DNA from: Psammoneis japonica
Lineage: Eukaryota
Direction: 5' to 3'
Length of the DNA stretch: 64,000 nt
Assembly (NCBI GenBank): GCA_008632985.1
Contig: QPGO01000169.1
Coordinates: 1-64,000, forward strand
The position numbers and the translations under genes are program-made. The first letter of the stretch is position 1; each line of letters opens with the position of its first letter. Below, piece after piece: positions 10,680 through 64,000 of this stretch. The notes below the pieces were generated by a model, which saw only the letters and a program-made list of their open reading frames with translations, was not told the DNA's origin and made no database searches.

Positions 10680-13600
10680 GCATCATCTGTGTGACTGTGT
10701 CACCTGGTGGGTGCGTTGTCTGTGCTGTCTGCTGTGAGCTGGCTTTGGGCACGACACATGAGGAGCGCAGCTCTTGTTTTGCAAGCCAGCCAAGACTGGC
10801 TGGCATTGGCCTGTGTGCCAACCTCTGTTTTTGGCACCCCCTCATGACCAGGTGTGGCAGTCATTGGGGTGGCTCAGTTCTTCTTGTGGGGTGAGCGAGC
10901 AAAAAAAGAAAAGACACACAATGAGACACCCGCTCTGGCTCAAAAGCAGGCTGAGCTTGCAGCAAGCAAATGGCCAAGCATCAGCAACACCAGATTCCCA
11001 GAGCATTTGCTCTTGTGCTGCTTGTTCGCACAGCAAAGCTTGTCCAAAGTCAGCTTCATCGCCCTTGGGCAATGCCGCAAATCTCCAGCATCAGCTTTGG
11101 AGCCAGATCAAGAAGCAGGCCTGCCTTGCAACTTTTGTGGGCACAAGAGCTGCACCAAGTTGTTTGGAAAAATGCTGTCAATTGTCAGCCATTGTGGAGC
11201 AGGGCCAGCTTTTCACATGTTTTGTTCACAAAGCTCTCAGATGTGCTCCTGCTGCTGCTCTTGACAACACTCTCTCTCTCCACTTTCTGGATGCTCTCAG
11301 CCTCAGCTGTGGCAAGCTTTAGACTGACTCAGCTGTGCAAGTGCTGGCTTCCTTGCTGACCACTTTGGAAAGGCCAGGCATGGAAATGGCAAAAACTTTG
11401 ATCCATTCATTCCAGGTTCTTGCGGGACTTTGAAAAAGCTGTGGCAGGGGCACAGTCAGGGGGGGGCTGGGGGTTGGCTCAGCCTCGCCAGTCTCCACGA
11501 GAACTCACCAGCCCACGAGCTGCACGAGCTCTGAAAAACCTGGTGCATCACATCGCTCTATCTCTTGCCACATTGCTGAAAACTGTTTCCATGTAGAAAA
11601 CCCTGTGGTGAATCATGCGATGCCCATTGCTTCTCAGTCTTTCCAGAAAATTTTTATTCCGGCCGCAGCAGCGGTTCTTTGTCTGTGCTCAGTTGCTTCC
11701 GAGTTGCCGCAAGGATGTCAAACAAGCCCGAGAAGCATGACCTGACAAAGCATTTTTGTCGCATTGGTCGGGATGCCAATGAAAGGAATGTTTCAGGAAA
11801 GACAACTCGAGACAGTGGTGGAACCCCATCCAGAGACGAAGTGGTGCGCCAAAGAACTCTGCAGATGCCTCCACAAGCTCCTGAAACGAACTTCTTAAGT
11901 CCACTCACACGTGTGAATGCCATCAAGTCCCTGTCTGGAACTGAGCGTGAAAACAAGGCAAAAGAACTGTTGGTGCAAGGGTGCCCCAATCAAGTGCTGC
12001 CACGAAAAGAGGATGACACAGTGTGCAGGTTTGGGAAGCAAAACCGGCACTTCCAGAAGTTGTGGACAACCGATTGCAATTGGTTGGAAGTGGATGCAGA
12101 AGGAGAGGATCGAAATGTGTTTTGCCGCCATTGTCAGATTAGAGCAGGGGTCGGCACTCCGGGATCAACTGCGCAGGGTGGGTTGATTCACAACAACGAC
12201 TGCGTGAAAGGAGCAAACGTCAGCAAGACGTGGATCAAAGAAGCAAAGGACAGGTTTGGAAACTTCCTGTGCAGCTCACATTTAGCTTCCATTGTGGCCT
12301 CTCAGGCAAGCAGTGCGAATCGTGAAAACACGCAAAAAATGCATTCAAAGTGTTGTCTGGGTGGAAAAAGGGTGAGCTCGCTTCGCTTGCAGTCAGCCCC
12401 CCCAGTTGATTTGGTCTGGCTGCGCCACTGGCTGTGGGGCAATGTGATGTGGGGCATGCCATTGATGGCACACATCCAGACAATGACTGTGCAGCAAGGA
12501 CTGCAGCCCAACCACCACATGGCCCGCACTTTGCACCACACTTTTGCGCATGAAAATTGTTTGGAATGCAAGCACAAGCCATGATGTGCTGCAGAAAAAA
12601 CAACCACCATCTCTTTGGGGATCAAAACACTTTTTAGAAAGTTGGAGCTCTTCACTGCTTTTGTCCCTTGTTTGCTCCCTGAACATTTGTTGCTTCACAC
12701 ATCTGCTTTGCTTCTGATGGAGTCTGTTTGTCCAGCACTGTGATGATGATGTCACAGCCACTTGCCATTTGCTGCATTTGGCCCCCCCTCATCTTTCTTG
12801 ACATCTTGATGCTTGCCAAGTTTTTGGTGAACAAGGATCAGCTGGAGAACAAGCATGATGTGTGGAAGAAGTGCAAAAGATTGTCATCCACAGCAGCACC
12901 AGGAGCCAAACACCATGATTTGCTTTCATGTTTTTGTGACCAACAAAGCCACATGAATGAGCAACATGCCATGTTGTCCCCATCATTGGCTGTGCTTGAT
13001 CATCTTTTTGCCATGATTTGCTCATGAGCTGCTCTGCAAAGTTCTTTGTGGTCAGTTTGTCAGTTTCCACTTTTTTCTTGGAGAGTGCAGTGCCCTTTCT
13101 CTCTTCATTGCTCAAGGGTCACCTGTGCAGATGCAGCACAATTGCCAAGCAAATGCTTGCCACACTTGCACTGCCCTCATTGAAAACCAACTCTGACAAG
13201 CAATTTCAGTCTTCAGCTTTCACACACAAACAAGAGATTGGCCAGCACACACACACATGTTGGTGCTCATCACACAATCCTGAAACAGCTGAGGCCATGC
13301 CAGAGTTGATGCAGATTGCCGCTGTTTTGAACCAACAGCTTGGCCCTGCCAGTTGAAATGAGTTGGGACATGAGTCATTTGAGAGTTGAAAAGGTTGCAG
13401 CAAAGGAGCACAATGTGCCCCAGCAATCCAAGATCAGCACTCTTGAAAATGAATGTGCTTTGCTCTGCGGTGGCCATTGGGACACTGCTGGGAGCATTGG
13501 CATGGCCAAGAGAGTGTTTGGCTGAATCAACAAGTGGCAATGAACTCAGAGGTGGAGCTGCATGTTGCCTCTGCCTCGTCTGTCATCATTGACATTGGTG

Positions 13601-16600
13601 GTCAAAGTGACTTGTCATGCACAGCACAGGAGCAGCCAATGGAGAACTCAGAAAATGGAGGCAATGCCAAAATGTGCATTTTGGACATTCTGATGGAACT
13701 GTGTGGTCAAGGCCTCTTGAAAGGGGCCCAGTGGAAAGACACATCCATGCACCCATCAAATGCAAAGAGAAGAAGCTGCTCCAAAACATGCTTGAGTTGT
13801 GCGATGTTGCAATGAAAACAATGGTGAGCGCAAAGCACTGAAGGGCAATGGACTCAACAACTGGGGTTTGAAAACTCATGCAAAGCAAAACAAAAACAAA
13901 TGCATGAGGAAAATGTTGGAGTGTCAAGGTCTGGATCCAGATGTTGAGGAGCAGCTTGAAAAAAGAAGATCATGAGTCATCAGAAAGCAGTGTGTGTGGG
14001 CATTTGGGTGTGTGTGCATTTGCACAAAAGGACTGAAGAAAAGGGCAGGAAGTGCAAAGATCCCTGTGACCCACCTCCTGGCAATGAGTCAACAGTCACA
14101 GGAGTGCCTCCAGGCAACATGCCTCTTCTCTCTTTCTGGGGTGCCAAGGCCAGGTGTGGAGTGGCACAGCTTTGTGTTCAGTGTTGAGTTTCCATGTGTT
14201 CATTTTTGGCACTCTTTTGTCTGGACCAAACTTGATGCTTCCCCAAACTGCCCCAGAATCCCCCACAGTTTTCTTGGTGGGAAAAGTTGTTTCAAAGAAA
14301 AGAGAAATCCACAACTCTGTGGGACCAAGCTTGTGGGACACACTGCAAATTTCTTGTTGAACAAATGGCAAAAAGCAGGGAGAAAATTGGCAAAGGCACC
14401 GCTGAGAATCAAAACAGTGCTGACCTGTCCAGAATTGCACAATCAATTTCTTTGGCAAATTTTGGACAAAAGAGAAATCCTCAACTCATGTTGACACACA
14501 ACACGGGGCCTGGCTTTTTGGGTGCATTGTGAAATTGTTGAGAGCAAAACAAGAAATGGGAAAACAGGTGAAAGCACCATTGAGACATCACACCACGAAG
14601 TGGGACACTGTCAGCATGCATCAATGTGCTGCTGCAGTTTGTTGTGTGCAACTGGGATTTCCACATGTGACCAATGGCGGATGTTGGTCAATGCAAATGA
14701 CACGACCAGCCAGTCAGCCACAAACATTTTCAAATGCGATTGCTTGCATTCTGCTTGTGGGCCCATTGAATGTTGGTTGACAAAACCTGGGTGCTCTTCA
14801 TTGCACAGTGTTCAAGAATCTAGATCAGGGATGAGAATCATCACATTCACCACCATTTCTCTTTGCGTTTGAGTTTGGCTTTGTGTTGGCCTGATTGCAT
14901 TCGCATTGCCCCCCTGATTGTGCACGCCTGTCCTTGCCCTGTGTTGCTGTTTTGCATTGCAGCATTTTAGACTCTAGAGTCCCCCACTGCTCTAGAAAAG
15001 AGAGCACCATCAGCACATTGCAGCATTGCTGTCACACGTTGAACCCCTCTTGACTGCAAGCAGCACTTGCACAGCAGCCCCACCAGTTGTGCAAGGCAGA
15101 TTTCAGACACAGCACACACAGCTTCTTCATTGATGACAACAACAGAAACTGCTTCCCACTTGCATGCGCTGCTCTGGCAAGCTCACGATCATCGAAATGA
15201 AGAGTTTCTGTTCCAAAGCAGTTGTTGCAACAAGGAAGAAGGACCCGTTGTGCAGCTTTGCAAACACTTTGGCTTTGTTCATTGCAGCCCTGGGCTCAAG
15301 CACTGCAAGTTCATTCCAGGAAAGAAGGAGGGAGAATCAGACAAGATGATTGCAGTTGACCTCAAGAATCATTGTTGGAACTAAAATGCTGGCTCACTGT
15401 CAATGAAGGGAGAGATCATTGCTTGAGTCAGGCGATCAAGCCAGCTCCATTCCCAGGTGGCAACAGCTCTCTCATCATGAGAGACAAAATGAGGGGTTGG
15501 GATCAATTTGCCCCAAACATTTCTGAGGTGCTTGCAGTTCTTGATTTCGCATGTGAAACATTGAAAGCTGTGACAACTGCATTTTTTTTGCTGCAATCTC
15601 CTTTCCTTGCTGTTCCACCAAACAGCCAGACCCACACTTTGCAAACTTGCCAGCACAGGGGCAAATGAGGGTCTTGATCATGTTGACCTCCTCAACATCA
15701 ACAAAGGGAAGGCTTGAAAAGGAAATGCTGGAAAGCTCTTTGGGGTGCTTGCTGGAAGGTTTGGTCAAGTTGTCTTGCTCATTGGAGAAATTCAAATCAT
15801 CAGCCAGCAATGTCGACATGATCCTTCTTGACACAGCCGTTGGTTGTGGTGCCCTGAGAATGATCAAGCTCAGACAGTTCTTCTTTGGCAGTCTCGGACA
15901 GCTTGTCTTTGTGGGTTGATTCTTTGTTGACAGTGATGGTCAGATGAAACAGAAAAATTCTCACAGAGTTGCCATCAAATGATTCAGTCCCTTCGGATTG
16001 TGTCATGGCCATGACTGTCTTGTGCACTGCAATGGTTTGCGACAGAGTGTGGAAAGAAACCAAGCAATCCACCCCACCAAATTTACATTGTTGGTTGTGT
16101 TCACAATCCGTTCAACCTTGCACACCATGATCTTTCACAACAGAGCATGAAAAGAAACTCATTGCTTGTCATTTTCTTTTGAAATGATCCATCCAGCTAA
16201 ACTCGCACAATTGGCCACACTCACAATCAGTTCAAATCAATCATTCTCAACCTCTGCAAACATCATTGAGTTGACCAAAAGGCAGCAAGAGCTGCCACAA
16301 GAAAAAGGCAGGACAATGTTGTCACACATCACCCTTTTCATTCTTTGCCATGGCGAACAAGAGGATGAGATGGTCTGCCAGCGTCTTTTGGCCAAAGAGG
16401 AGAGAAAGCAGAAAACCTGACACCTGGGGTTCATCAAAGGGAACAACAGATGCAAATCATTGAAGAAACAGTCAAGTGTCAACTCTCTGGACCCTCTGCT
16501 TGCAGCCAAAGGCCACGCACAGTCTCAAACATCATGGTTGGCTCTCATTTCTGTGATCCATGGGGTCGCAAGGTTGTGGTTTTCTCCTCTCCACTGCATC

Positions 16601-17590
16601 GCGCAATTGGAACTGCCACAGTGGTTGGAGGGGCCGCTTTGAGCACCAATGCATTGTGACCATGACTAGACTCCTCAAACGGGTTGGGAAACAATGAAAT
16701 TCCAATCACTGTGTTGAATGGCTTGGGTGATTTTGCTTCTGAAGTGTGCCATCGTGGCGGCATTGAGGCTTGGATTCCTTTGCATTCTGTTCGATGCTCC
16801 AACATGCGGGAAAATGATGGCACGTTGCAGAGACCATTTGTTTGTGCTCCATCTCAGATGCCAAGCCATTGATTGCAGGTGCATGGGAAATGCTCTCCCA
16901 TTTGGTTCTGGGGAACATCCTTGGGGACCTTTGTCCCAATGTCACCGTTTCTTGCTGCGGATTCCAAAGCGTGTGACATGGGAGAAGGGGAAGCAGTCAA
17001 GCACCCAAAAAAGCCAAGCAGCAAAGCTTTTGTGGCACCAAGGAATCCAATTTGTGCCACTGAGGATGCTGTGTGGATGACTCTTGACAGAGGTTGCTCC
17101 TTTTGCTTGTGTGGTTGTGTGTCTCATCGAGAAGCGATTCGCGCGATGTGGCAGAGGGGTGTGGTGTGTTCTCTCATCTGAACGCTCCCTGCTGTTGCAC
17201 TGGTTGTTTTGGAGCCAACGTTGAAGGAGATTTCATCCGCTTTGCCTTGTTGGATGTCTGGCATGCAGGACACTCCGACTTTGTTCTGAGACTGCCGCGT
17301 CCACCGCTGACTGGAATCCACTTGCGACTGATGTTCAAGAATGCAGGTGATGGAATGATGTTTCATCTGTGCAATGTTGAGGTCCTGAACCTTCATGATG
17401 GCAGGCTGGGGTTGCAAATTTGGTTGTCCTTGTGGAAATCACACAAGACTTTTGCCATGCCAGCAACCCGAGGATGCAAAAACTCTTCATGCTCAAGTTC
17501 AAGAAGGCCATGATTCCTTGGAGAATGAAGGGAACTGTGCCACAATGACTCCAGAGCAGTGCTCTTTCTTGTCATCAACAGATGTCAATC
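10680..17590. repeat. Block of heavily mutated TpA/CpG-depleted repeat remnants, mostly unclassifiable
   Basis: Almost no TA dinucleotides, excess TG/CA, and only Cys/His-rich spurious ORFs. Confidence 0.75.
11715..13420 (+). pseudogene. Decayed hAT-like transposase gene (TTF-type zinc-finger region)
   Basis: RHFQKLWTTDCNWLEV...VFCRHCQ resembles the R.F...W...YxWLxY...VFCxxC TTF finger. The downstream part is frameshifted and TpA-depleted. Confidence 0.4.
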
Positions 17591-18099
17591 AACAGCTTTA
17601 AAGCTGCCGGCAGATTAGATCGATTGCTCGATCCGTCCATGGTGTCTTTTTTTGCAGCACAGCAAACTATCTCGAAAAGAAGACAAATGCAGAGGACAAA
17701 ACAACCGCCGGAAACGGAAAGAGGGGTTGAAAAAAGCAGGAGAATGCGATCTGCATCATCATCATCTAGAAGATTGAGCAGCAGCATTTACATCTTGGTG
17801 CTTCCCGATTTAACTGTCTGGTGGTGGTGGTCTAACAGCAGCAACTTCTTTCGCGGTTCCCTCCTGCACAGACGCCAGGGACATTGTAGTCTCTAGAGGG
17901 GCCCTGAGTGCATGACATTTCACATTGTGCATGGCATCGCACCGACGAAGGACAGAGCAAAGAACGATTCTTGTTGCATTCACCATCTGTCAAAGTTGAA
18001 CCCTATTACCTGTTTCCGATGGCAGGCAGAGAGACACCGGTGAAAGATTGCACATCCTTTTCATTCATATTGTATTACACAGTAAAACAGCAACCGACC

Positions 18100-18762
18100 A
18101 TGCTGGTTTCGTTCTGGTATATGTTGGTGTATCTAGTTGTCATGATTTGTGCTGTGTGCATGTATTGTGCCTGCAAATCCAGATTCAACGACGACGACAT
18201 GCTTCTGCCGCCAATACCCATTATCGAACCAATACACCGGAGTGCTGATGAAGAACGAAGACTCTCTCCGCAAGAGCTCCGACAATATATCGAACATAGT
18301 ATTGTCTCCAAGACAATCACAACAAATAAGAAGAGCAACGGAACTACTGATTCCAGTGAAAAGATACAAATCGGGCAGAAAAGCAAAGACGGAACGGAAG
18401 GTCAGTCTAGTGGAAGTCAAGACAAATCAGAAACTGAGAAGGACAAAACGAATGATTCTATACAAGACGTGGATTTGGAATCTGGTGTCGTTCAGAAAGA
18501 AGAGGAACTTGAGCGTACTACCGAAAAAGATACGATCATGCTTGAGGAATTGGTTTCGAATCTGTGCGAGATTTGCTTGAGCGAATACTGTGCGGGAGAT
18601 GTGGTTTCTTCCAGTTTGAATCCGACTTGCACTCACTCGTTTCACAAGGATTGCATTGTGGAATGGCTCACAAGAACTACCAACGGAGAAAAGCAACGGA
18701 ACGAAATGACTTGTCCTTGCTGTCGACGAGATTACATACCAGATTCTTCTTCCAGTTCTTGA
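18100..18762 (+). CDS. Transmembrane RING-H2 E3 ubiquitin ligase (ATL-like architecture)
   Basis: N-terminal hydrophobic helix plus CEICLSEY...CTHSFHKDCIVEW...CPCCR. Confidence 0.88.
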   Translation: MLVSFWYMLVYLVVMICAVCMYCACKSRFNDDDMLLPPIPIIEPIHRSADEERRLSPQELRQYIEHSIVSKTITTNKKSNGTTDSSEKIQIGQKSKDGTEGQSSGSQDKSETEKDKTNDSIQDVDLESGVVQKEEELERTTEKDTIMLEELVSNLCEICLSEYCAGDVVSSSLNPTCTHSFHKDCIVEWLTRTTNGEKQRNEMTCPCCRRDYIPDSSSSS

Positions 18763-18957
18763 GACGATTTCAAAATGGATGATGGAAAATTGTTCACCTT
18801 GTTGTCTGAGCCAGGTGGATCCCTGACAGCCCTGACAATTTTGACGTTTTCGTCCAGGATCAAAGCAGCAGGTTGCAGCGGTAAGACACGTTCTCGCATC
18901 AAATTTTGACTCTTCAGTGAAGGCAGCCCCGAACCTAGATTATGGCGTTCAACAAGT

Positions 18958-19404
18958 TGTCATGAGCTTGACTCTCATTGGTGGAGTGATGATATGAGGC
19001 CGACCAGTTTCCTGGACAGGAGGCAGCCAGTTGAGAGCATACCTGCCGCTTTGCCACGCCACTCAGTTGGGTGAGGTGTGGAGAAGCCTGTCTCTATGAT
19101 AATAATGGAGGCGGATGCTGTTGACTTCTAGCTAGAGGGCATCTACTAGGGGGGCTACGTGCACACCTCTTGTTCGGCGACGCGAGTGGCTTCACTCGTT
19201 TTTCACCTTCTTTATGTAGTCACCAGTACAGTACCTACGCCAAGAAAGTAGGAATACCTTGATGCAGGTTGGGAGCTGTCAGTGCAGTAACGTCCCGCGT
19301 GCTGGTCGGCTTGCGCATTGACGACCAAGACTACACGATACATATCGACAAAATCATCCTGCTATAGCTAGAGTCTCAGTGAATACTAGCTCATCATTAC
19401 ATCA
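18958..19404. mobile_element. Solo LTR (447 bp) with 5-bp target-site duplication
   Basis: Begins TG (TGTCATG) and ends CA (TACATCA). Flanked by CAAGT at 18953-18957 and 19405-19409. Confidence 0.7.
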
Positions 19405-19676
19405 CAAGTCAGGGCAAGCTACCACGCACAGATTACGGGGTCGCGCAGTTCGTAATAAGTTGATCCAGAATGTTGCAGACCCAAAAGGGCCACCGTCATT
19501 TGTGGCTCGAACAGCAGTCCTGTATTTCTGTGCTCGGTCCTGGAGCTCACGGATCCTTATGTGTGCAGGTGTTTTGGGACCATCTCCTCTCACGAGTGGT
19601 TGGAAAAGAGTACGAAAGGATCATGACTGTATTGTACCGCATTGTCGAGGTCAGTCTTCCAGAATGTGGGGTGCGG

Positions 19677-21429
19677 CTAGACCTCAGTTTTCTTCTCTTC
19701 ACCATCGATGCCTAATAGCTCTTCCTTCTCATTCGCGATTTCAATAGACCCGTAATGTGTCAGAGCCGGTTGGTATTCTTTTATGTCCACCATTCCTTCT
19801 CGTTCTCGTATACTCTTTTGTATTTGACCCCAATCGGCAAACGCAAACGCGGCCCACAAGACGACATTCATGGATATGTACGGTAGCGACATCCAAGACC
19901 AAGCAGCGTTGATTCCTCCTCCTCGTATGGACGAAACATAGTACAAGCACGGCAAACCAACCACCCAAAAGAAAAATGTAGTCACAATTCCTAGTGTCCA
20001 CTGCATGCCTAATCCCCACGCCGTTCCCATGTTTAGCCCATAGAGACCCAGGAAAAAACTAAACACAGCAACATCCGACCAAATCTCCTCACAACCCTGA
20101 GAGCATTCCAAATACACACAGGTGCGGAAGGTAGTCGACGGGGTAAGAGCACGAGAAAACTGCAATGGTAGACATGCCATGTTGTCTTTACCTTTAATAT
20201 ATCCGGTTCTGTGGTGAACCATCGAAATATAACATGTCTCTGGGCATACAAGACGTACGAAGCAACCAACAACACCGCGGCACCGACTATATTTGTCCAC
20301 AAGCACACGCGTTTGGCACGCTTCACCGAGTGCGGTAGAATTGTGCCAAGTCGCACGGCCATTGCGGTCCCCACACTGAGAGGAACCATCCAGGATACGG
20401 TGATCACTTGTGTTGGAATTGTATGGATTGCGAGCGGTACCTCACCAAAGGTTCCAATCATGAGCGCTACCACCTCCCAATACCACCACTCCTTTCACGC
20501 AAGTTCATGCGGAGAATTCACGAGAACACAACATTTTTCAAGTAAGCAGTAGACTCTACTTGAGGACCAAAACAGCAGGCATCATAACTTACCGACATTG
20601 ACAAGATTCCACCACCACCCAGCTTGAGGTAGATAGCTACGTCTTCCCATTCCAGTGCACGCTTCACTGTGTCTAGCGCTAATCCAACCCACGTCCGAGG
20701 ATGAAATGGCTTTTTCCATTTCAAAAGGAGCAAAAGGAACAATGCCAGGAACGCTTCGTATAGAACGATTGCCATGGCACTTCCACGAAACCCCCAGACG
20801 TATACGCAGACTTTTAATGCCAGTGGCAAACTCAACCCACAAGCCGCTACACAGGACACTACCAAGGGCCACATGACAGCTTGAGCCGATAGAAATTTCC
20901 AAGTAACAGAAAAAAGAGCCCAAAAGGGCATGGCCCAAATATAAATTCGAAACCACGTGGAAGCAAGTTCCGATGCTTCCACATTTTGATTCATATCAAT
21001 CAAGAACACGTGCATCCATCTCCACAGAATGACATTAATGGGTAAAATTAGAATCATTCCCACGATAAATCCTCGAACCGCCAACAATCCAACCTTTTCA
21101 AAGTTACCAGACGTGAACGCTTGCGGTGATAACGTGTCGGCTGCCGAGTACAACCCAAAAAGAAAGGATAGACTCAGGAGATTCCCGGTAAGTGTTGCGA
21201 GCGTGAACCCATCCAAATATTCGGAACCAAACAACCGTCCTACATACGATGCAGTCAAGGCGTTCGGTATGGTTGTTGACAATTCAATGACTGCTGTGGG
21301 AACCGCCAGTTCAGCCAACAACCGCGCTTCCACGAAAATAATCGACGAGAGTAGTTTGTCATTCTTTCGGCTTTGAGTCCTTATTGTAGAAGAATCGCCA
21401 CGATCAACAACCTTTTCGCACATTGTCAT
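19677..21429 (-). CDS. MATE family efflux transporter; introns 20492..20592 and 20097..20191
   Basis: Motifs LAELAVP, DTLSPQAF, KFLSAQ, spliced MS|EWWYWEV, and VPLSVGTAMAVRLG. Both GT-AG introns restore the frame. Confidence 0.93.
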
Positions 21430-45579: not shown

Positions 45580-45599
45580 TGTGTGTGTGTGTGTGTGTG

Positions 45600-45633
<34 letters not shown>

Positions 45634-53020: not shown

Positions 53021-53442
53021 TAACTTCAAGCATGACAGGAGCATTTCCCTTTTGCATGTCAGATGAGAACTCTGATCTGAGTGGGTGAAAGACCCCTGCA
53101 GCCCAGAAGACATCATGAGCCACAGGGTTCAACCAGCCACAACTTGTTCCAACAGAACTGCTCTGTTCTTCTTCAGAACAACTGCTCTCCATGAGTGAGG
53201 CTGACAAGAATGAGCACAATCTGCTGCACAACATGACAGTGCAGAAGTGGCCATGGAGCTGCTGGGACAAGTTTTTGAGACTGTCAAGCATTGTGATCAA
53301 AAGAAAACAAGAAATCTGAAATGGGAAATTCCTTCTTGCAAGACACAAGATGAGCCAAGTCAATTCCTCAAGAGTGGAAAGAGGCAGTTCTTGACTGCAA
53401 ACCCACACCTCTTCTGTTGCAATGTTGTGGACATGGTGCATC

Positions 53443-53851
53443 NNNNNNNNNNNNNNNNNNNNNNNNNNNNNNNNNNNNNNNNNNNNNNNNNNNNNNNNNN
53501 NNNNNNNNNNNNNNNNNNNNNNNNNNNNNNNNNNNNNNNNNNNNNNNNNNNNNNNNNNNNNNNNNNNNNNNNNNNNNNNNNNNNNNNNNNNNNNNNNNNN
53601 NNNNNNNNNNNNNNNNNNNNNNNNNNNNNNNNNNNNNNNNNNNNNNNNNNNNNNNNNNNNNNNNNNNNNNNNNNNNNNNNNNNNNNNNNNNNNNNNNNNN
53701 NNNNNNNNNNNNNNNNNNNNNNNNNNNNNNNNNNNNNNNNNNNNNNNNNNNNNNNNNNNNNNNNNNNNNNNNNNNNNNNNNNNNNNNNNNNNNNNNNNNN
53801 NNNNNNNNNNNNNNNNNNNNNNNNNNNNNNNNNNNNNNNNNNNNNNNNNNN
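53443..53851. other. Assembly gap (N run)
   Basis: Run of N. Confidence 1.
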
Positions 53852-56800
53852 CCAGACAGAAACAGCGTCAATGAGTCACACAAATTGTTGGCTGTTGGTT
53901 GTCCCATGAACCTGTGGCATGGGCACATTTTGGGTTTGTGGTCCCCTTGTGGTGCATTGCAACACCAGCCACCTTCCTGGTCCACCATGAGACAGCGACA
54001 AAATGAGTTCCACATTTGGCAAACTTGCCCCAGAATGGAGTTCTTCAAAATTTGATTTCTGAGATGATCAATGGTTGGATCATGAATTTGATTGCCAGCC
54101 CACACAGAAAAATTGCACAAGAGAAAGCTTGTTGTGCTCATGTGGAACATTTTGTGGGAGTGTGTGTGAGGCACAACACACTTGTTCGATGACATGGTTG
54201 GCCCATGACTGCTTTCCAAAACCTTGGCCATGACTGACATTCCATCAACAATGAGGTCTGAGGCTGGCACAGTCACATCACCCACCACACAACTCAAGCT
54301 GGCTGGAAGAAATGCACAGTTTTTGTTGTTGCCAAGACGAGTTGATGAGTCTTGAAAGAGCCCGGAGTTGGGCACAACAGAAGGCACTCTCTTGAGCTCA
54401 GGGCCATCTTCCCATGCTCAGTCAATCCAAAACAAGTGAGCACTGCAGCCCTCACTTGTTGCCTTGCAACTTGTGAACTTCACTCTGCTGCTTGCTTGGT
54501 GCTGGCTGAAAATTGAGGAATTTGTGGGGGGTGGATTGGAGCTGCCAGTGGCCAATGACCATGACTTCAGCTTTGCAGTCTGCACTGGTGGGTTTGACCT
54601 CCACAAAATGGCTGCCAGATGTCTGGGCCGGTGCACTCCTTGAAGGCAAGCCCCATTGCCAGCTGCCACCATGCTGGATGATGCGCTTGCTTTGTCCTTG
54701 CAATGGAGCGTGCGTGGTCGAGCCGGAACACAGCAGGAATCATTGCGGCTCTCAGAGTCATTGCGCAGAAATTGTGCAGAAGAGCACAAGAAATGGTTGT
54801 CATCAGTCTGTCCACCCGTTCACATTTGAATGTCAACTCCCTCTCGGGAACTCAATTGAAATGTCATCTGATCAAGGGCACTGCTCTTCACCATCTAAAA
54901 ATCAAAATGCCCTTGATCAGATGACATTTCAATTGAGTTCCCGAAAAGTCAGCAGCCCTGATCACCCTCTCTCGCATGACATTGTGCACATTTCTGCGCA
55001 ATTTGGCATTTTTCCTTGTGCAAAATGCCAATTGTGACTCTTGCGACATTTTCGAATGATTCCTGCCGGCATTGTCTCAAAATCATGAAATCATGTGCTT
55101 GAGGTTCGTCAATCAAATGGTGTGGGATGCCGCACATGATGACAACGCTGACGTGGAAGGTCATCCGTCAAGCAAATGCTCCTTGTGTGCGGCACAAATT
55201 TAATGCCGCACACAAGGCGGAGGACAAAACAAGGTTGTGCCGCACATGGGGGCGATTTGTTGCTTGCTCAACGGGGTAAATTTTAAAGTCATCACACATT
55301 GCCCTTTTGTCATTTTAATCAAGTTAGTCAAACACAGCTTTAAACCGCCGTTGTGCGGCACGTGCACGGAATTGAGAGATCTTGTGCAAATGTCACCAGT
55401 CTAACTCAAGCAACCAGGACAGTGAACATAGAAAATGTGAAGGCATTCTAAGTAGAAAGAATTGCCATTGTCAGCTGTTGCTTGTTTCACTGTCTCTCCA
55501 TTGTCACATTTCTTCTTTTTTGAAGTTGCTCCTGCCTCCTCGTCTGTCGCAACACAAGCGCTTGTCTCATCCACTTCCTTCCTGCCACCATGCTGTGCAC
55601 ATTGCTCAAAGCATTTTGCTTTTCAACTCTGCAACAAAGTGCTCTGAGTTGGCAACACCAGAAGCTGAGCTCTTGCAGCCATGAGCTCACCAGCAGCACA
55701 GCTGAGCGCCGCCGCATGGCGCCAAGGCTGCACAAAGTCAGCTTGCTTCTCTCTGCATGGCTTCTTGACTTTGCTCATGCCACCCTTGCAAAAGCAGGCC
55801 TTTGTTTTCTTGCCCCGCTTTTGCTGCTGCCCACCTTGGGCTTTGGCACGTGCTGGAGATCATTTCTGGCCACCTCAGATGCTGCGCACCTGCAAGCCTC
55901 TGCACTTTTTGTCTTTTCTTTTTGTTGTTGCTCTGGCTTCTTGCTGCTCCAACACACAGCACTGCTTTCTGCTGCTGCTGCTGCTGCTGCTGCTTTTGTT
56001 CATGATCTTGGTGCTTCTGCAAAGCATTGTGCTGGGGAGCTCCTTCCTTGTGAAAGCTGTGCAAAGAGGTGATTTTTTCCAGATCTGCAAAGAGGTCATG
56101 GAGTGCACACTTGTGCTCTCATTTGACAGAAGCAGTGCACAGCAGCAGACAGACATCTTCAGCAAGCTCCAGGAGTGCTTTTGTGTGCTGCTTGGAGATT
56201 CAGCGACAAGTGCTAAAGCAGCTTTTTGTGAGGCAGCTCTCAACAACAACTGGGCGAAACCCCAAAGTGGTGCTGAGAATGCTTTGCAGTTTGCAGGGTG
56301 CTGCTCAAGTGATGGACAACATGCAGAATTTCTCAGCTGGCTTGCTGTGGTGGCAATGAGCTCTTGCTGGGCTGGGCTGTGCAGAGCATCTCAGCTGCTT
56401 GCTTTTGGCACCCAAAGCAGTCTGACAATTTTCCTCTTTTGGAATTTTGTTCATCCCTTCCACCTGTTTCTTCAAGATGCAGCATGCAGCATGGCTCTCT
56501 GTGAGAGCTGACATGTGGTGCCATCCTGACTTCTTTTGCTTTGCCAAAATTGCAGCCATCAGAGCTGTGGCTGGACACACACTGCTTCTGCACAAACTCC
56601 TTGTCTGCATGCCACACTTTGTTTCACACCAAATTGTGAGGCAAATCTCAGCTGGTGCAACTGGCACACACCCCAAAATGGCATTGAAAACACTTTGTGG
56701 GGTGCTGCTTGGCTGTGGACAACCTTCGGCCTTCTTGGCTGGGGCCAGCTGGGGGGCAGCAGTGAGCTCTCTTGCTGGGTCACACAACACGCTTCAGAGC

Positions 56801-57953
56801 CTCTCTCAACTGCTTGCTTTTGGTGCCCAAATCAGTCTCACAATTTTCCCTTTTTGGAATTTTGTTCACCCCCCCACCCAGTTCTTCAGTGCACAGCACA
56901 CACCACTCTCCTCTCTGCACCCTGGTTCTTGCACCCCTCCTTCTCTGGCGCTTCTTTTTTGCTTCTTGACGGGCTCCAATCCTGGGTGGGACTCCATGTG
57001 ACATTGGGCCCGTAGACTTCTACGTGCGAGCTCTGCATTAAAATTGTCAATCAATTTAAATGCACATGATCGCCAACAGAAAAAGAGGCAATTTTACGAA
57101 CGCATCTCCTCCTTCACACTTGCAGCACATGAACAACAGTTTGCATGGGCATGTTCTGCAGACATTGAAGAGTGTGCCCGCACATTTTCATTGTCACAAA
57201 TGTTGAAAATGGAAAGCCTTTGGCTTCGCAAAATGGGAAGCATGAAACAATTTCGTAGAATGTCACACGTAGCCATCTACGTGAGCGACATGCGGCGCGA
57301 TCCAAAAAACTGTTGATGTCACAGTTCAGTGCTGCGAGGTCCCACCCAGAGCTGGAGCGCATCTCTTGCTTTGCCTTTTGTTGCAGCCACTGGTGCTGTG
57401 GCCAGACACTCTGTTTCTGCACAAGCTCCTTGTCTGGTGCATGTTGCACTTTGCTTCAAATGTTGTTCCTTGTCCTTGAGAGGAGATGCCCTTGGTGATG
57501 AGTGCTTGTGCAGTTGTTCAGTTCTCCCCACTTTAACATCCGGGTTACTTTTGCGAGCTGACTCCTCTGCTTCGCTCAAGTCGAGTTAATCAAAACCTGT
57601 TGCCCACACCAGGTAAAAAAATGCCTGAGGTGGCAGGTCGTCAAATGGTGTGGGATGCTGCACATGACGACAACGCTGACGTGGAAGGTCACCCGTTAAG
57701 CAAATGCTCCTCATGTGCGGCAGTCTACAAATTTTGTGCCGCACACAAGGCGGAGGACAAAACAAAACCTGTTGCCCACACCAGGTAAAAAAATGCCCTT
57801 GAGGCACCCCGGTGGAGGGGAGAACATGGTGATGTCATGGTTGCGTGGCAGATTCATGCCTTGTCCATTGCATTTTTATGTGAATGTCCTCACATTTATT
57901 TGTGCATTTGCACACAAATGCCAACAGCAACAGGAAAAATCCTGAACCATGTT

Positions 57954-60242
57954 CTCCCCTAAAACTCTGACCTCCAAACTCCGAGGGTGCGGAAATGCAC
58001 TTTTGGCAGCTCTTTTCTTCGCACAAAAAAACACGCGTTTTGACAACTCGACCATGATGATGCCTCGCAGTGCTTCCCCATTGCCTTCCCAGGACGCCGG
58101 TCCTGCTGACACCGTTGCCAATGATGCTGATGCAACAGGCAATGTCATTGTTCCGGTTCTCGTGGGTGTGATGCATGCAAAACAACAAGATGCTACAAAC
58201 TCACACTGTTGTTTGCACGCTGCACTGCCTCCCACAGATGCTGTCACGAATTCCAACGCCGTGCTTGCATTTCGGGCCCCTGGCATGCCCGATGCTGTTG
58301 CTCCTGTCTTGTTGCCGCAGGTGCTGTTGACACTGTCATTGTCTTTTACCAACAACATCCACAATCAAATGCTGGTGTCTCACACTTTTTTTTTCTCGCG
58401 GTGCCGCATCCCAAAGACACTCAATGGGAATCTTTCAAAAATGACCCGTGACGTAAAACCAACAAATTGCTTGTGGACGTGCGCAGAATCTACACGTTTT
58501 TGCACCAAAACTGTTGTCATCTCAAAACTTTTGCAAAAAAGGAAATTGCTGCCAACTGATCAGGCGTGTTTCTCCAAATGTGTTGTTCTAAAATGTGCCT
58601 GATCAGTTTGCAGCAAAGTCCATTTTTCGCAGAATTAAAATTCACTGAGGGTAGACAGACAGACAATTTCACATTTTTGCTGGTGCCAGTCTACATGATT
58701 TCTACGTGTTTGTGGAACGATGACTCCACAGCACGAAAGATTGCCATTGGCAACGAATGCAAACTCCGCACCTGCATTTTGGTCCACTGGCATGCCCGAG
58801 ACTGTCACTCCCACCATCGCTGCCACAGGTGCTGTTGACGCTGTTGTTGTCTTTTGCCAATGACGTCCACAATGAAGTGCCAATGACTCACACTTTTTTC
58901 ATTCTTGCCACACCACCTCCCAAAGATGCTGTCACCAATGAAAACGCCGCACCTGCGTTTTGGTCCACCAGCATGCCCGAGACTGTTGCTTTCACCCTTG
59001 ATGACACAGGTGCTGTTGACACTGTCATTGTTTTTGCTTTGGAAGGAGGACAATGGATGACGGCGACCAGGAAACCCTCACCACGGCCTGCTGATGGACG
59101 AGTGTTGGTGTCATGGCTCTTGTGCTTTCTGTGTTTGTTCATGGTTTTCCTCTTTGTCAGCTCTCAATTGCAGTCCAATCTTTAGAATGTACAGACATGT
59201 GATGTGGCTCTCTGTGAATTAGAAACCTGATGACTTCTGATGGCAGGCATGCTTTCACAGTTTTTTAGTTGGACAGGTTGGCGAACCAGTCTTTGTTTGC
59301 AGGCAACTTGGCAAGGTTTCAAGTGAGTGGTGCATGTGACTTGGACACTGCTCTGTTTGTCAGGACCAGGTCATCATCTACAATTTCATGAGACGCCACT
59401 CTCGCCGTTTGAAATCTACGTGCAATGTGCAATGTGCTGTTTTTATTGCAAGTTGCTAAAAAAGAGGCCGGCAGCAACTTGCTTTTGGCAAACACTCACT
59501 GTGTTTGTCGCCATCAGACCTTCTGAACTGGTGCCACATTGATGGCCATGCTGCCACTTTGCATGCCGGTGCCTTCTCTGCCCGCACTCCAATGGCTGCG
59601 TCCACCTTCATGTTGCTGCGGCTCATCTTGACACCTGTTGTTGGCTCCGATTGGTTCCGCTGGGCCATGGGTGAGCCTCAATCACCTCCAGATAGAGGAG
59701 CTTTTTCTTGGGAATCATCCTGAGAAACGCTGTTGCCAAGCCTCCTAGATGCTCCTCTGCCATGCCCACACCCACACAAGGAGTGTCGACCAGTCCATTG
59801 GTGCTCGTTGATCCCATGCCTTTGTTGTCCCAACCAGAATCGCCTCTGCCGCCTCCAGGCCCACTTGCATCCACAGCAGTCGGAGCACGAGCAGGATTGT
59901 TTCTTGTTGTTGTTTCATTGTGCTGGGTTGCAGTGCTCAATGACAAATGGTGGCAATGTCGTCCACCGTCAATTTTGGATCCGGTGAAAATGGGCCCAAA
60001 CTTCAGGATCGCAAATCTGCTGTGTTTGGGTTATGACAGCAGGTGCAACGGCACCGGCCAACACAGGAGGGACTGTCACATCAGATGTGGAAGGCATGGA
60101 CATGTCAGGTGGTGCAAGGGACGTAGAACGGGAGGTCGTCATGGTCAAGTCATCAAAACGCGTGATGTTTTGGTGTGTGCGCAGTCTTCCAAAAAGTGCG
60201 TTTCCGCACCCTCGGAGTTTGGAGGTCAGAGTTTTAGGGGAG
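57954..60242. mobile_element. Non-autonomous foldback-like element with long inverted repeats and internal repeated units
   Basis: Perfect 42-bp inverted repeat at 57954-57995 / 60201-60242 with imperfect extension. CAGGTGCTGTTGAC units at ~58318, ~58827 and ~59007. Confidence 0.7.
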
Positions 60243-60413
60243 CTGTGGAACAAGGATTTTCACTTGTGGAACACACACATTCATGTGGATGTCAACATTG
60301 AAACTCAACGGATGGCAAAGCCGTGCGTGCAGCAACCACGAACACACGCACAGCTCCCCTGCCACAGGGGTGCCCTTGAGGTTGGGGGCGGGTTGCGTGC
60401 CGGAAATGCTGTC

Positions 60414-61199
60414 AGACCCTGTCCAAACTGGACCATGCCCATGTACATGGCTGACATCATAGAGCCGAAAATGAGCCTCTTCAAAAAAATTAGTGGTTGC
60501 CAGCCCCATGCATGACGCAATTTTAGGCCATGCCAACTTTTGTGAGGAACACTGTTCTGGGGTGAACAGTGTTCCTCGAAAACAGCACACCCAAACACCA
60601 CACCCCCGAGTCGACACATGATGCGACCCAGAAGCAGCGTTTTTGATGCAACAAAAGTGCGCATGGCTGGCTGTGCCTTTTCCAAGAGCAACCCACAACC
60701 TTGTCACATGTGAGGCACTTGCTTTGTTTGGGTCGCTTTACGTGCCGTTCTTGTCTCATCATGATGCAGCAGTTTTCCTGAACATTCTCTCAATCAATCT
60801 GCTGCAGACACTCATGCTGTGAAGTTGATTGCAGTGTGCATGAGTCATGCACAAGTTCAGTGGTGTGATCAATTTGCATCCTTCACTTGGCTCATTGCCG
60901 CCTTGTGGCTGCGTTCTCGTCGTCATGGTGTCGTCGCTCTCGTCGTGTGTTTTTGTTCTGTTTCATTCCAACTTCATCGATGTAGTTAGTTCAACACCCT
61001 GGTGAAATGATCAACCTTCATCAATTAGAAACATGTAAAATCAGAGATGCAACATGTTCGTGCATGGATGAAGTGGGGGCATGCATGAAAGTGTGATGCA
61101 GTTTGGAAAGCACTGCATGGGCATGACCCTGTGACGTCTGCAAAAAGGCTTTGTGATGTCAGGTGTGCACACAGGTGTGGTCCAGTTTGGACAGGGTCT
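60414..61199. mobile_element. MITE-like element with ~50-bp imperfect inverted repeats
   Basis: AGACCCTGTCCAAACTGGACCA...CTGACATCA at 60414 is inverted at ~61147-61199. Confidence 0.6.
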
Positions 61200-61277
61200 C
61201 AATGTGCGGTCAAAGGGCGATGTGCATGACAAGGCAGGCTCTACCAGCATTGCCGGCAGCCGGTGCCGGCACAGTTA

Positions 61278-62034
61278 GACCCGTCGCACTCGTGGGGGAG
61301 GGGTGTAATTCGGGGTGCAATTTTATTACAGCAAACAAACAGGCCGCCAGAGGCAGGTGTTTTTTTCCTGTAAAAAATTTCCGGGCCTGTAATTTTTCGT
61401 ACGAAAACAGACTCATCATCGTCCATGATGGCAGAAAACATCCGAATGTCGAACAACAATGACAACCAACAATCAACAAGGAACTTCAGTCAACAAGAGA
61501 TGTGAAAAATCATTGCTGTGGAGATGTTGTGATGTGTTCATGAAAGAAAGAATGGCGAAAAACGATGAGATTGGAGTCAACGGACAACAAAATGATGGCA
61601 ACTTCATGCCTTTTCTGAAGAAAAAACATGTCACATGGTTGCTGAAACCTCAGCTGTGGATGCAACAATAACACATGATGTCAACCACGTCATTGCAAAT
61701 CAACTGGACTTGTCAGAACAGTGATTTGATGTGCGTGAGGTCGCAGCAGAGCTGCCGAGCGCAATGGTGTTTTGTTACAGTCATTTGAATGTTCGACATC
61801 GTGCACAGATAAGTTGATGAAAATGGAGATGTCAAGTCATTCATGCTTGTACATCATTCATCTTTCAGGAGCACACATTCAATGAATGTGTCAATCCTTG
61901 CAGAGTTGCAGTTGTCAAATTTCAGACTCTCATGCTCGTGCGAAAATCGGGTGTAATTTTGGGGTGTAAAATTGTGCTCACACCCCCAAATTACACCCCG
62001 AATTACACCCCAATTTCCACAAGTACGACGGGTC
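61278..62034. mobile_element. Tourist/Harbinger-type MITE with TTA target-site duplication
   Basis: TTA|GACCCGTCGCACTCGTGG ... CCACAAGTACGACGGGTC|TTA, with inverted subterminal GGGTGTAATTCGGGGTG repeats. Confidence 0.85.
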
Positions 62035-62175
62035 TTAGTGGGGCTCTCAGTTGTGATCACAAAGCATTGGGCATCCACCACTGGAGAGAAATACGAAAAG
62101 ACAGGAAAGCGCTTTCTCCTTTGATGTGTGCCCTCTCATTTTGTCACAACTTATTTCTTTACGACGCAAAATGAC

Positions 62176-62583
62176 ATGGAAGAGATGGCATGCAGCAGCA
62201 AAGACGATGAAGATTCCAGTTCGCCCAGAAAGGAGCTTCCCAAGTTTCTGGGAGACATTCGGTTCTTGACTCTCAATGAAAAGAAAAGGCTGCACTTGAG
62301 TGGTCCTGATGGAATCTTTGCCGGTGACAAGACGCACTGCCAGTGGCTCAAGAATGAACAAGTGCACCATGCTCAATGCGCTTGTTGCGGTGATGGTTCC
62401 AAGGACGTGAAACTCTTTCACTGCAGCCATTGTGAGATCACAGCATGCTGTGGAAAGGACTGTCAGAAGAAGCACTGGAAAGTTCACAAAAAGGTGTGCA
62501 AAGAGCCCAACAATGAACGTTTCAAAATTGCCGTGCAGCATCGGGGCAATGAGCAGCGTGGCTGTGCGCAGGTGGATGTGTGA
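62176..62583 (+). pseudogene. MYND zinc-finger gene remnant
   Basis: CACCG...LFHCSHCEITACCGKDCQKKHWKVHKKVC, where the canonical YC reads CC. Confidence 0.75.
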
Positions 62584-63001
62584 TTTATTTGGCTTGGCAA
62601 TCTGGGATTGTTCAACACAAAGCTTCTTCGCGATGCTTTGTGCCAGCTTCGGTGTTTGGTGACTCAAGTTGTGGCACCTCAAATGACCATTCTTTCCACT
62701 GACTGTTTAGATTGACATGTTTGAGATGACATCCTTGCGTTCAAGGAATGTGCTAGACCAACTCTCTCATCCGTTGCATTGCACAGTTGTCTGCAAGACA
62801 CGTTTCAGCTAGAGAGAAACTAAGTCCAACGCACTCGCACTGTTTAGTCCGGAGCTTCAAACCACCCAGCTTTTACGACGAAATGAATCAGCTCGCCGTT
62901 CATTGCATGCACAAATTTTCCCGCTTCGTCCTGACGGCAAACCAAGCACAGTCGCTTTTTTCATGAGGCTGCACACACAATTGTTTGGGTGGAGCACCTG
63001 A

Positions 63002-63712
63002 TCAACTAACAGTGGTTTCAGGAGATGACCGTTCTGGTGGATCTTCTTTCCACCAGGTGGATTTCTTTTGCTTCTTGCGAGCAGTCTTCTTTTCTTGCAA
63101 TGGCAAAGTCCCACCGTGATCTTCTATCCACTTTTCCAAAAGCTCCTTCCCACTCTTACTTTGGACCTTGGAGATGCACTGCTGGAACAGCTTGCGGTCT
63201 CGGAGCTCCAAGGGTTCCTGCTCTTTCCGTTCTTTTGCCTCGAGTGCCGCGCGAGCCTCATTCTCCTTGCGTTCCTGTTCTCTCTTGATCTTGCAAAAGC
63301 ACTCGGGACACTCCCCCTTGGGGACATCTTCACTCACGCAGAATGCATCACAGAACAACAAATTGCACTCAACGCACGTCAAGCTCCTGTGCTCGTCCTC
63401 CACAGCAATGCCGTGTTCATTCCAGCAGTTCATAAAACAACCGGGACACACTTCGCTAGAATCACATGCCTGGAGAGGGCAGTCCTCACACTTGCAATCT
63501 AAGTAGATGTCGTAATCTTCAATCTCACCCTTCATGCCTGGGCACTGGGAGCAGCGATTAGAGCCACTGTCGTCACACTGGGCAAATTCCTGTTCTTCTT
63601 CGCCGCAATCAGAACAGAGATTTGCTTCGCGACCGCAAGTGTCGCAGCACCATCCAATGTCACAGCAATCCATGCTCCTTGCGGAACAACGATCGCAGTG
63701 GTGCCAACCCAT
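63002..63712 (-). CDS. Hypothetical CxxC-rich protein with coiled-coil tail; possibly a pseudogene
   Basis: 236-aa ORF with repeated CxxC and an acidic/charged composition. It lies in TpA-poor sequence. Confidence 0.45.
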   Translation of the reverse strand: MGWHHCDRCSARSMDCCDIGWCCDTCGREANLCSDCGEEEQEFAQCDDSGSNRCSQCPGMKGEIEDYDIYLDCKCEDCPLQACDSSEVCPGCFMNCWNEHGIAVEDEHRSLTCVECNLLFCDAFCVSEDVPKGECPECFCKIKREQERKENEARAALEAKERKEQEPLELRDRKLFQQCISKVQSKSGKELLEKWIEDHGGTLPLQEKKTARKKQKKSTWWKEDPPERSSPETTVS

Positions 63713-64000
63713 TTCAGTTTCTTTTTTGCGTTCACAATGAAACTTTGTCTGTCATTGGTGTGAATGGTGATGGCTGGCGCGGCTCGCCTTCAACCAGCGA
63801 CGCCAAAGATACTATGAATATCTATTGGTCAACATGACCGAAGATTTAAGATTGTTCGGAACTAGCAGTACCAATCAATCGAACAGTTCAATGACACTAC
63901 AAGCTAATTGATTGAGTGGTATTCTCTCTCTACGAGAGTAGAGTAGATGCAGGATACACGACGTCCACGAGGAAGGTGTTAACAACCAACCAACAAGAGA

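Follow-up and report, generated by a model that had tools for sequence, protein, structure and literature searches.

A TpA-depletion signature in transposon relics and copied gene pieces of a diatom genome, and its resemblance to TpA hypermutation in a rhizarian alga

Introduction

Hypermutation that disables mobile DNA by changing A:T to G:C pairs has so far been described once, in a 2026 preprint on a single rhizarian alga: in mutation-accumulation lines of Bigelowiella natans, TpA becomes TpG or CpA within integrated viral DNA (Mettrop et al., bioRxiv 10.64898/2026.01.13.699255). Here we describe a similar signature in a diatom. It lies in a 64 kb stretch of the Psammoneis japonica genome (GenBank assembly GCA_008632985.1, contig QPGO01000169.1, positions 1 to 64,000 of the forward strand; hereafter the window, to which all statistics are confined unless stated), where ten blocks of DNA between ordinary genes have almost lost the dinucleotide TA.

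According to the preprint, 231 of 302 new nuclear single-nucleotide mutations in B. natans fell in two integrated viral regions, about 1000-fold above the genome rate; 230 of these 231 were A>G or T>C, and every A>G/T>C was at TpA. The viral-region mutations were confined to 11 of 15 lines, which suggests a regulated process. As a long-term trace, the B. natans genome carries windows poor in TpA and rich in CpA+TpG, grouped in 124 clusters in which DDE-endonuclease and reverse-transcriptase domains are over-represented. As the agent, its authors suggest an ADAT2-like DNA adenine deaminase, on homology grounds only; the main text mentions neither CpG nor trinucleotide context. Natural editing of chromosomal DNA has been claimed only for a few ADAT2 proteins (cited in 10.64898/2026.01.13.699255).

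Other known systems offer partial parallels. Repeat-induced point mutation (RIP) of ascomycete fungi also disables mobile or duplicated DNA by transitions only, to saturation and with a dinucleotide signature. RIP is premeiotic in fungi, is triggered by homology so that both copies are mutated, and makes TpA from CpA; here, as the earlier note on this DNA had pointed out, the direction is opposite (TpA is destroyed, CpA and TpG are gained), and copies at a gene and in a miniature inverted-repeat transposable element (MITE) are intact. Decay of methylated CpG accounts for the CG>TG/CA half of the change in the same blocks; however, it cannot remove TA, and its edge is gradual where the TA edge is a step. 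Adenosine deaminases (TadA and ADAT2-3 on tRNA, ADAR on double-stranded RNA, TadA-derived DNA base editors) have the chemistry that gives A>G, and TadA prefers a 5′ T/U neighbour, but the natural enzymes act on RNA loops or double-stranded RNA. Finally, DNA polymerase eta produces A>G at an A preceded by T during somatic hypermutation (WA>WG).

The window resembles B. natans in the change itself (TpA>TpG and TpA>CpA), in its confinement to foreign or mobile DNA in an otherwise ordinary genome and in the TpA-poor, CpA+TpG-rich clusters left in the long term, with DDE-endonuclease domains among the affected sequences. The differences are several: a diatom (Stramenopiles) instead of Rhizaria; a fossil signature alone, where new mutations were recorded in B. 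natans; a greater depth, with TpA observed/expected (obs/exp) ratios of 0.03-0.16 over 37 kb of the 64 kb against a Rho of 0.45 in the nucleocytoplasmic large DNA virus (NCLDV) region of B. natans; and DNA transposons plus copied gene pieces as targets instead of giant-virus or virophage inserts. Moreover, CpG decay coincides here and there is a 3′-pyrimidine preference, two matters on which the main text of the preprint is silent. The earlier note knew of no published description, and this has been overtaken: a TpA hypermutation process is already in print, for the rhizarian alga. The full-text literature, subscription journals being outside the search, yielded nothing on TpA-depleted or A>G-hypermutated transposons in diatoms, and the sections covered of the Phaeodactylum tricornutum mutation-accumulation paper PMC6604790 and of PMC4504042 contain nothing on TpA hypermutation. 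What is new here is the lineage, the depth of the depletion, the DNA transposon targets, an action that depends neither on homology nor on CpG decay, the step-like edges and the preference for TAY (Y, pyrimidine; R, purine).

Results

Blocks almost free of TA

The window was segmented with our own two-state hidden Markov model (HMM) on the probability of A after T, its parameters being chosen by us. Depleted DNA amounts to 37,186 bases in ten segments and normal DNA to 26,679 (63,865 in sum), with segment edges within about 200 bp of the coordinates in the earlier note. The ten depleted blocks, none of which has a strand, are:

7305-7985: 3 TA, TpA obs/exp 0.06, CpG 0.48
10510-17598: the largest block, 16 TA in 7,089 bp, TpA 0.03, CpG 0.29
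21558-22771: TpA 0.07, CpG 0.38
25055-26356: TpA 0.15, CpG 0.70
26853-31130: TpA 0.06, CpG 0.50
35048-39782: TpA 0.11, CpG 0.62
40317-42174: TpA 0.07, CpG nearly normal (0.71)
45091-46905: TpA 0.06, CpG 0.12; contains the decayed copy 46264-46497
49567-55200: TpA 0.05, CpG 0.26; contains the decayed gene copy 51558-52234
55462-63790: less complete, 87 TA, TpA 0.16, CpG 0.52

While TpA falls to 0.03-0.16 in these segments, TG/CA rises to 1.45-2.02; normal DNA has TpA of 0.5-0.7, so that the blocks are almost TA-free and rich in TG/CA and the genes ordinary, just as the earlier note described. Windows of 1 kb give the same picture, with TpA of 0.00-0.2, CpG of 0.07-0.7 and TG and CA of 1.5-2.1 inside blocks against TpA of 0.5-0.8 and CpG of 0.8-1.2 between them, at a G+C content of about 0.48 throughout. 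There are 66 TA-free gaps of at least 200 bp, the longest of which (12635-14821, 2,186 bp) has a log10 P of -37.2 at the TA frequency of normal regions; the longest gap across 200 mononucleotide shuffles of the window was 270 bp. Given that normal-state DNA outside long open reading frames (ORFs; 8,775 bp in 22 pieces) has TpA of 0.63 and CpG of 0.92, much like that inside ORFs (0.54 and 0.95), the contrast is not one of coding versus non-coding sequence. Relative to normal DNA, each kb of block has lost 32.8 TA and 27.2 CG and gained 54.7 TG+CA, which is near balance.

The depletion is genuine. Read-derived contigs of run X1 match the TA-free block over 10207-18198 in two pieces with 9 letters different, five of them CpG against TpG/CpA, and place the largest block at single-copy depth. 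Since X1 is possibly the sample behind the assembly itself, this read-level agreement rules out an assembler artefact only.

A side effect of the loss is seen in stop triplets: TAA and TAG occur 1.9 and 1.7 times per kb in depleted DNA against 7.7 and 8.9 in normal DNA, and TGA is commoner (22.7 vs 17.7). With TAA and TAG some 4-5 times rarer, the blocks contain many long open frames that are not genes. Annotation is affected in two ways: spurious long frames are called in TA-free DNA, and its transposons escape profile searches.

The block 49567-55200 holds an assembly gap of 409 N (53443-53851) with TA-free sequence on its flanks, and the low G+C of the 1-kb windows around it is an artefact of this N run.

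Relics within the blocks

A Pfam profile search of 150 stop-to-stop frames of at least 100 aa from the blocks returned only DDE_Tnp_4 (38833-39363, minus strand) and zf-MYND as credible families, and twelve read-through translations of block 10510-17598 (six frames by two halves) gave 0 Pfam families. Together with homologue searches, inverted ends and contig depth, the following elements were recognised:

38700-39900, minus strand: Harbinger/PIF (DDE_Tnp_4) transposase relic with 6 stops (Pfam and homologues)
11580-12581, plus strand: hAT-type transposase relic, N-terminal part, in a 334-residue open frame (representative protein search)
24819-29128, plus strand: TE1, a multicopy DNA transposon of 4.3 kb with inverted ends of about 32 bp (24819-24851 and 29096-29128)
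49000-49252, plus strand: MITE-like deletion derivative of TE1, 253 bp, located at the 5′ end of a gene and retaining both inverted ends

When translated across its stops, each read as X, the Harbinger relic finds ten homologues at E <= 1e-5, of which two come from a named organism, the diatom Seminavis robusta. All six columns in which at least half of the homologues have Tyr read Cys (5) or His (1) in the relic, and Tyr makes up 0.4% of its core against a homologue mean of 3.5%. Polarised by these outgroups, the replacements correspond to TAY>TGY/CAY, consistent with the claim of the earlier note that Tyr codons are destroyed. In a search of 1.84 billion proteins, the hAT relic matches the N-terminus of P0132 (E 1.8e-10; 115 residues aligned at 42% identity), which is 800 aa long and contains DUF4371 and a hAT dimerisation domain. 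The relic likewise carries His or Cys at Tyr positions of P0132 (RYF>RHF, KYEW>DCNW).

TE1 has a weak DDE_3 match (26178-26456, E 1.5e-5, below Pfam's cut-off). Its depth in read-derived contigs is 333-785 against about 59-67 for adjoining single-copy DNA, and contigs with differing flanks (five plus four) end at 24818/24819, which indicates that TE1 is dispersed in the genome. The affected DNA, so far as assigned, thus comprises relics of three DNA-transposon superfamilies (hAT, Tc1/IS630-like and Harbinger) and copied pieces of host genes.

Direction of change

Self-comparison of the window returned four pairs, each made up of a copy in normal DNA and a counterpart within a block. All are on the plus strand:

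Pair 1: FG-GAP gene 3′ end, intact 44346-45002, decayed 51558-52234
Pair 2: FG-GAP gene flank, intact 44906-45134, decayed 46264-46497
Pair 3: part of the TMEM65 gene, intact 32138-32451, decayed 22412-22736
Pair 4: MITE stretch, unmutated 49047-49256, against the right end of TE1, 28923-29133
Intact source of pairs 1 and 2: FG-GAP gene 3′ end and flank, 44346-45134, with two decayed copies inside blocks

Altogether, 46 of the 61 TA dinucleotides in the intact copies read TG or CA in the decayed ones and 4 are kept, as the earlier note had seen in the pairs it aligned. CG shares this fate at 49 of 71 sites, with 10 kept, whereas the background is 213 differences at 1,118 other sites, 144 of them transitions. 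Deamination of 5-methylcytosine, as the earlier note argued, explains the CpG half of these changes and not the loss of TA.

Individual pairs differ in age. The decayed copy of pair 1 has turned 20 of 25 TA (1 kept) and 32 of 36 CG (none kept) into TG/CA, and its identity rises from 72.6% in the four-letter code to 90.1% in purine/pyrimidine code; most differences are therefore transitions. In pair 3 the counts are 8 of 12 for TA (none kept) and 9 of 13 for CG. In pair 4, 14 of 17 TA were changed to TG/CA and 9 of 14 CG kept.

Counted per site, A>G hit TpA at 50 of 121 positions (0.41) and all other NpA at 75 of 590 (odds ratio 4.8, P = 5e-12), so that A>G rates are not equal across contexts, which would have meant generic GC-biased conversion in the terms of the earlier note. 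The other 5′ bases are alike, with 27/212 (0.13) for ApA, 25/209 (0.12) for CpA and 23/169 (0.14) for GpA. As the ApA half of the WA motif is thus at background, the polymerase eta signature that the earlier note had put forward is not seen. C>T, for its part, reaches 51/143 (0.36) before G against 0.11-0.17 before other bases, the value at CpA (0.12) being that of the background. Events on the two strands are interleaved, and both strands are equally affected.

Outside CpG, C>T in the pairs was also somewhat more frequent at TpC (28/124, 0.23) than at ApC, CpC or GpC (0.13, 0.06 and 0.11), which may be a third, weaker context effect or noise.

Sequence context and CpG decay

Survival of TA in the blocks relative to normal DNA depends strongly on the neighbouring bases:

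TTAA: 0.55 (25 in blocks vs 33 in normal DNA)
CTAA: 0.41
CTAG: 0.25
GTAA: 0.22
CTAC: 0.16
ATAA: 0.14
GTAC: 0.08
ATAG: 0.07
ATAC: 0.009 (2 vs 168)
ATAT: 0 (0 vs 61)

Grouped, survival is 0.025 for RTAY (11 in blocks vs 315 in normal DNA), 0.16 for YTAY and 0.13 for RTAR (60 vs 266 and 48 vs 274 in the two mixed classes) and 0.37 for YTAR (86 vs 168), an effect that is roughly multiplicative per strand, with sensitivity in the order TAT > TAC > TAG > TAA. The surviving TAs point to a 5′-TAY motif, or equally to 5′-RTA if T is the target. The gain of GCA/TGC, the most enriched trinucleotide in the blocks (1.64-fold), and the reduction of AT fit such a preference. Among CpG contexts the spread is only about two-fold.

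Near-normal TA density is found in three short islands inside the blocks, at 26357-26849, 39783-40312 and 55201-55453. The last is explained by context, since 7 of its 9 TAs are in the resistant YTAR class. In the other two, which include 4 and 3 sensitive RTAY sites, the DNA could have been inserted later or be protected locally.

Diatom transposons are CpG-methylated in a DNMT5a-dependent manner (PMC9998398), so that loss of CpG in the blocks is expected. TpA loss and CpG decay run in the same DNA but are uncoupled. Among blocks with TpA of 0.03-0.16, CpG spans 0.12-0.71; windows at 37-38.5 kb have CpG of about 1.0 with TpA of 0.12-0.13, and some stretches combine TpA of 0.07-0.13 with CpG of 0.7-1.0. 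Pair 4 is the youngest, with a background of 0.077 differences per site; here 15 of 17 TA have gone but only 5 of 14 CG, per-site rates of about 13 and 3 times that background. The TpA process outruns methyl-CpG decay.

Position, homology and mutation in place

The earlier note saw in these blocks a second mutagenic process, targeted at repeats as a kind of reverse RIP. Its context-specific part, acting at 5′-TA in silent non-genic DNA, stands; the targeting to repeats does not, given that the MITE and the gene copies are untouched and that the largest block is single-copy. In the four pairs the gene-resident copies keep normal TA. The MITE is unmutated, its aligned stretch having a TpA obs/exp of 1.0 and 9 of 19 TAs in the most sensitive RTAY context, and the first ~235 bp of TE1, 113-350 bp from the start of the adjoining gene, also keep their TAs. 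Homology alone is therefore not the trigger.

What the boundaries follow instead is distance to genes, not transposon ends: 12 of 13 gene-facing edges are 127-512 bp from the end of a long ORF. In a mean profile over 13 block edges in 100-bp bins, TA density is 4.4-4.9 per 100 bp outside and 0.15-0.8 inside, the change being complete within a single bin and the normal side free of any gradient, whereas CpG falls gradually across the edges. Part of the step at zero follows from the use of TA itself to define the edges, but this does not apply to the flat shoulders. We infer that position in a silent domain, and not repeat status or transposon identity, marks DNA for the TpA process.

Comparison of TE1 copies shows that the mutations arose after insertion, separately in each copy. 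Variant contigs differ from the window by 292 transitions and 67 transversions, and 27 of 30 listed differences oppose TA or CG in one copy to TG or CA in another. Five dinucleotides are TG in the window and CA in the other copy or the reverse, as would follow if ancestral TA or CG had been struck on different strands in each copy. Furthermore, the process acts on DNA and not on RNA, since neither class II transposons nor copied pieces of genes, its targets here, have a reverse-transcription stage.

The same signature in environmental contigs

Our observations extend beyond this genome. Metagenome contigs scanned with the Harbinger alignment yielded 75 loci (179,115 bp) with a whole-locus TpA obs/exp of 0.30-0.92, so the Harbinger family is not TA-poor by nature, the earlier note's concern that transposon consensus sequences might themselves be TA-free. 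TA-free gaps of at least 700 bp occur in three of them, and two carry the signature found here. In L004, a stretch of about 850 bp has TpA of 0.02, TG of 1.55 and CA of 1.89 between flanks with TpA of 0.84; it overlaps the transposase, in which the LRYE and DGGY of relatives are replaced by LRCE and DGGH. L067 has 2 TAs in its first 1,569 bases, with TG of 1.56 and CA of 1.83. The closest intact relative, L003, retains its Tyr residues.

The third locus, L017, was rejected as a carrier: its 700-bp TA-free gap comes without TG/CA excess (TG 1.10, CA 1.34) and is ambiguous. Four other relatives (L073, L010, L005 and L058) have CpG of 0.13-0.39 at an ordinary TpA of 0.58-0.85, which indicates CpG decay without TpA loss in some organisms.

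Discussion

Taken as a whole, the explanation that we think somewhat probable is the following. The long intergenic stretches are relics of DNA transposons and copied gene pieces, mutated in place after their arrival by a process that turns the T:A pair of the 5′-TA-3′ step into C:G on either strand (TA>TG or TA>CA). This process prefers TA followed by a pyrimidine, runs to near saturation and halts within about 100 bp, at 130-500 bp from neighbouring genes, with methyl-CpG decay (CG>TG/CA) operating separately in the same DNA. Of this, our data show the direction, the dinucleotide context, the restriction to domains and that homology does not suffice. Its target would be a silent chromatin domain and its agent an enzyme acting on DNA. 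An enzyme is suggested by a rate that outruns methyl-CpG decay, by a three-base motif with about 50-fold differences between contexts and by the sharp stop line; the leading candidate would be an adenine deaminase of the TadA/ADAT2 kind, producing inosine from A, to be read as G. Mobile DNA would thereby be inactivated through removal of Tyr codons and scrambling of its coding sequence. We regard the in-place, domain-restricted TpA process as very probable, and give the adenine deaminase close to an even chance.

Several points weigh against this explanation. The evidence comes from 64 kb of one genome, and it is a fossil signature alone. Such a sequence record fits an attack on the A of the pair as well as one on the T, and the silent-chromatin status of the blocks is itself deduced from sequence. 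Background transitions are so common in the old copies that exclusivity to TpA cannot be claimed here. The TAY preference relies on surviving sites compared with a gene-region baseline, and at discordant sites in the pairs the struck strand read TAY 11 times against 6 for TAR, a trend only. Lastly, runs tests on the four pairs found no strand-coordinated clusters of events (P 0.16-1.0), which saturation could have erased.

The main rival to an adenine deaminase shifts the attack to thymine. A TET/JBP-type dioxygenase or another modifier would mark T at TpA in silent chromatin and give T>C, for example through 5-hydroxymethyl- or 5-formyl-uracil that mispairs with G or is misrepaired. Because TA is self-complementary, all our counts fit T>C at 5′-RTA as well as A>G at 5′-TAY. 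In kinetoplastids and dinoflagellates, hydroxylated thymine is a mark of silent or repeat DNA; base J is located at the TA step of telomere repeats, and 5-formyluracil can pair with G. Still, we consider a thymine target unlikely; the only study of the phenomenon, in B. natans, proposes adenine deamination, if on homology grounds (10.64898/2026.01.13.699255). A dedicated enzyme might also be dispensed with altogether, if a spontaneous or light-induced lesion at TpA (e.g. the TA photoproduct) were poorly repaired in compact chromatin. The restriction to non-genic DNA could then reflect access of repair, and the raised non-CpG C>T at TpC (28/124 vs 6/100 to 18/142) would find a place; but CpC is not raised, the untranscribed flanks of genes are spared on both strands, TpA loss is nearly complete and outpaces the decay of methyl-CpG in the same DNA, and in the preprint's account the B. 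natans process is on in some lines only. We find such a lesion improbable.

RNA-level and compositional origins fare worse. Editing of transposon transcripts by an ADAR- or ADAT-like A-to-I enzyme, followed by reverse transcription and re-insertion, is hard to reconcile with targets that are DNA transposons and gene pieces with non-coding flanks instead of retroelements, with both strands being equally affected, with independent TG/CA outcomes at the same site between copies and with edges that follow the genomic neighbourhood. ADARs, moreover, favour a 3′ G, and here TAG is among the least affected contexts, TAG and TAA surviving best. A 5′ U preference typical of ADARs, as noted in the Discussion of the preprint (10.64898/2026.01.13.699255), does speak for editing, which we nevertheless judge very improbable. 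That the blocks never had TA, be it through foreign or odd composition, selection against TA target sites or an artefact of sequencing or assembly, has the composition itself in its favour and nothing more. Against it stand the decayed copies of the organism's own genes within blocks, Tyr>Cys/His at conserved transposase sites, the TpA of 0.30-0.92 in the 75 Harbinger relatives, the unmutated MITE copy, the agreement of read-derived contigs with the window and two contigs from other projects with the same signature, and we find it scarcely credible. RIP was rejected for its opposite direction (here TpA is lost and CpA/TpG gained) and for the spared homologous copies, and the WA signature of polymerase eta for an ApA rate of 0.13, equal to background, against 0.41 at TpA.

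A saturated signature in a diatom and in two environmental contigs suggests that the process is not a curiosity of one species. We can speculate, as a tentative and rather doubtful extension, that diatoms and chlorarachniophytes share an old, chromatin-guided and methylation-independent DNA-editing defence that turns T:A into C:G at 5′-TAY in silenced double-stranded DNA. If so, this shared defence would permanently erase transposons and integrated viruses alongside cytosine methylation, would be widespread in the supergroup of Stramenopiles, Alveolata and Rhizaria (SAR) and would be nature's equivalent of the adenine base editors made in the laboratory. Our data add constraints on the mechanism: action at the DNA level, disregard of homologous gene-side copies, a step-like edge, the TAY preference and a pace faster than methyl-CpG decay. 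Diatoms are ecologically dominant and some are transformable and editable, so a hunt for the enzyme is practical.

Additional features of the window

The genes between the blocks encode the second-largest subunit of RNA polymerase, an MFS transporter, a MatE transporter, TMEM65, a RING protein, a DUF5898 protein and an FG-GAP protein. A homologue search with the polymerase subunit gave 2,454 proteins at E <= 1e-50, and the best named ones among the 120 matches listed are all from diatoms (Fragilaria crotonensis, 83% identity over 78% of the query; Phaeodactylum tricornutum, 78%; Seminavis robusta, 76%; Nitzschia inconspicua, 75%), with hits lacking a species name reaching 82%. This places the window in a diatom without a near relative in the collection searched, and sets it apart from B. 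natans. Scans of the window for tRNA genes and Rfam families found nothing. The zf-MYND match belongs to one open frame:

62125-62580: open frame with a zf-MYND match, within block 55462-63790 (Pfam)

Simple repeats were also noted. Within TE1, the stretch 27387-27627 holds a 60-bp tandem repeat (3.3 copies) together with a 27-bp repeat; block 45091-46905 has a (GAGT)n microsatellite at 45602-45681.

Contigs of a second run, X2, labelled 'DNA?', cover the gene parts of 9000-28999, with no cover at 10334-17670, 21673-22339 and 25008-28999, an absence that we did not use as evidence for or against silence; a third run, X3, gave no cover. In the MatE gene (minus strand), these contigs omit 95 and 105 bases at 20095-20191 and 20488-20594, and the omitted stretches are bounded by GT..AG on the gene strand (CT..AC on the plus strand). 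The gaps look like two short introns, X2 behaving like RNA, and the frames 19677-20306 and 20518-21429 would accordingly be exons of one gene.

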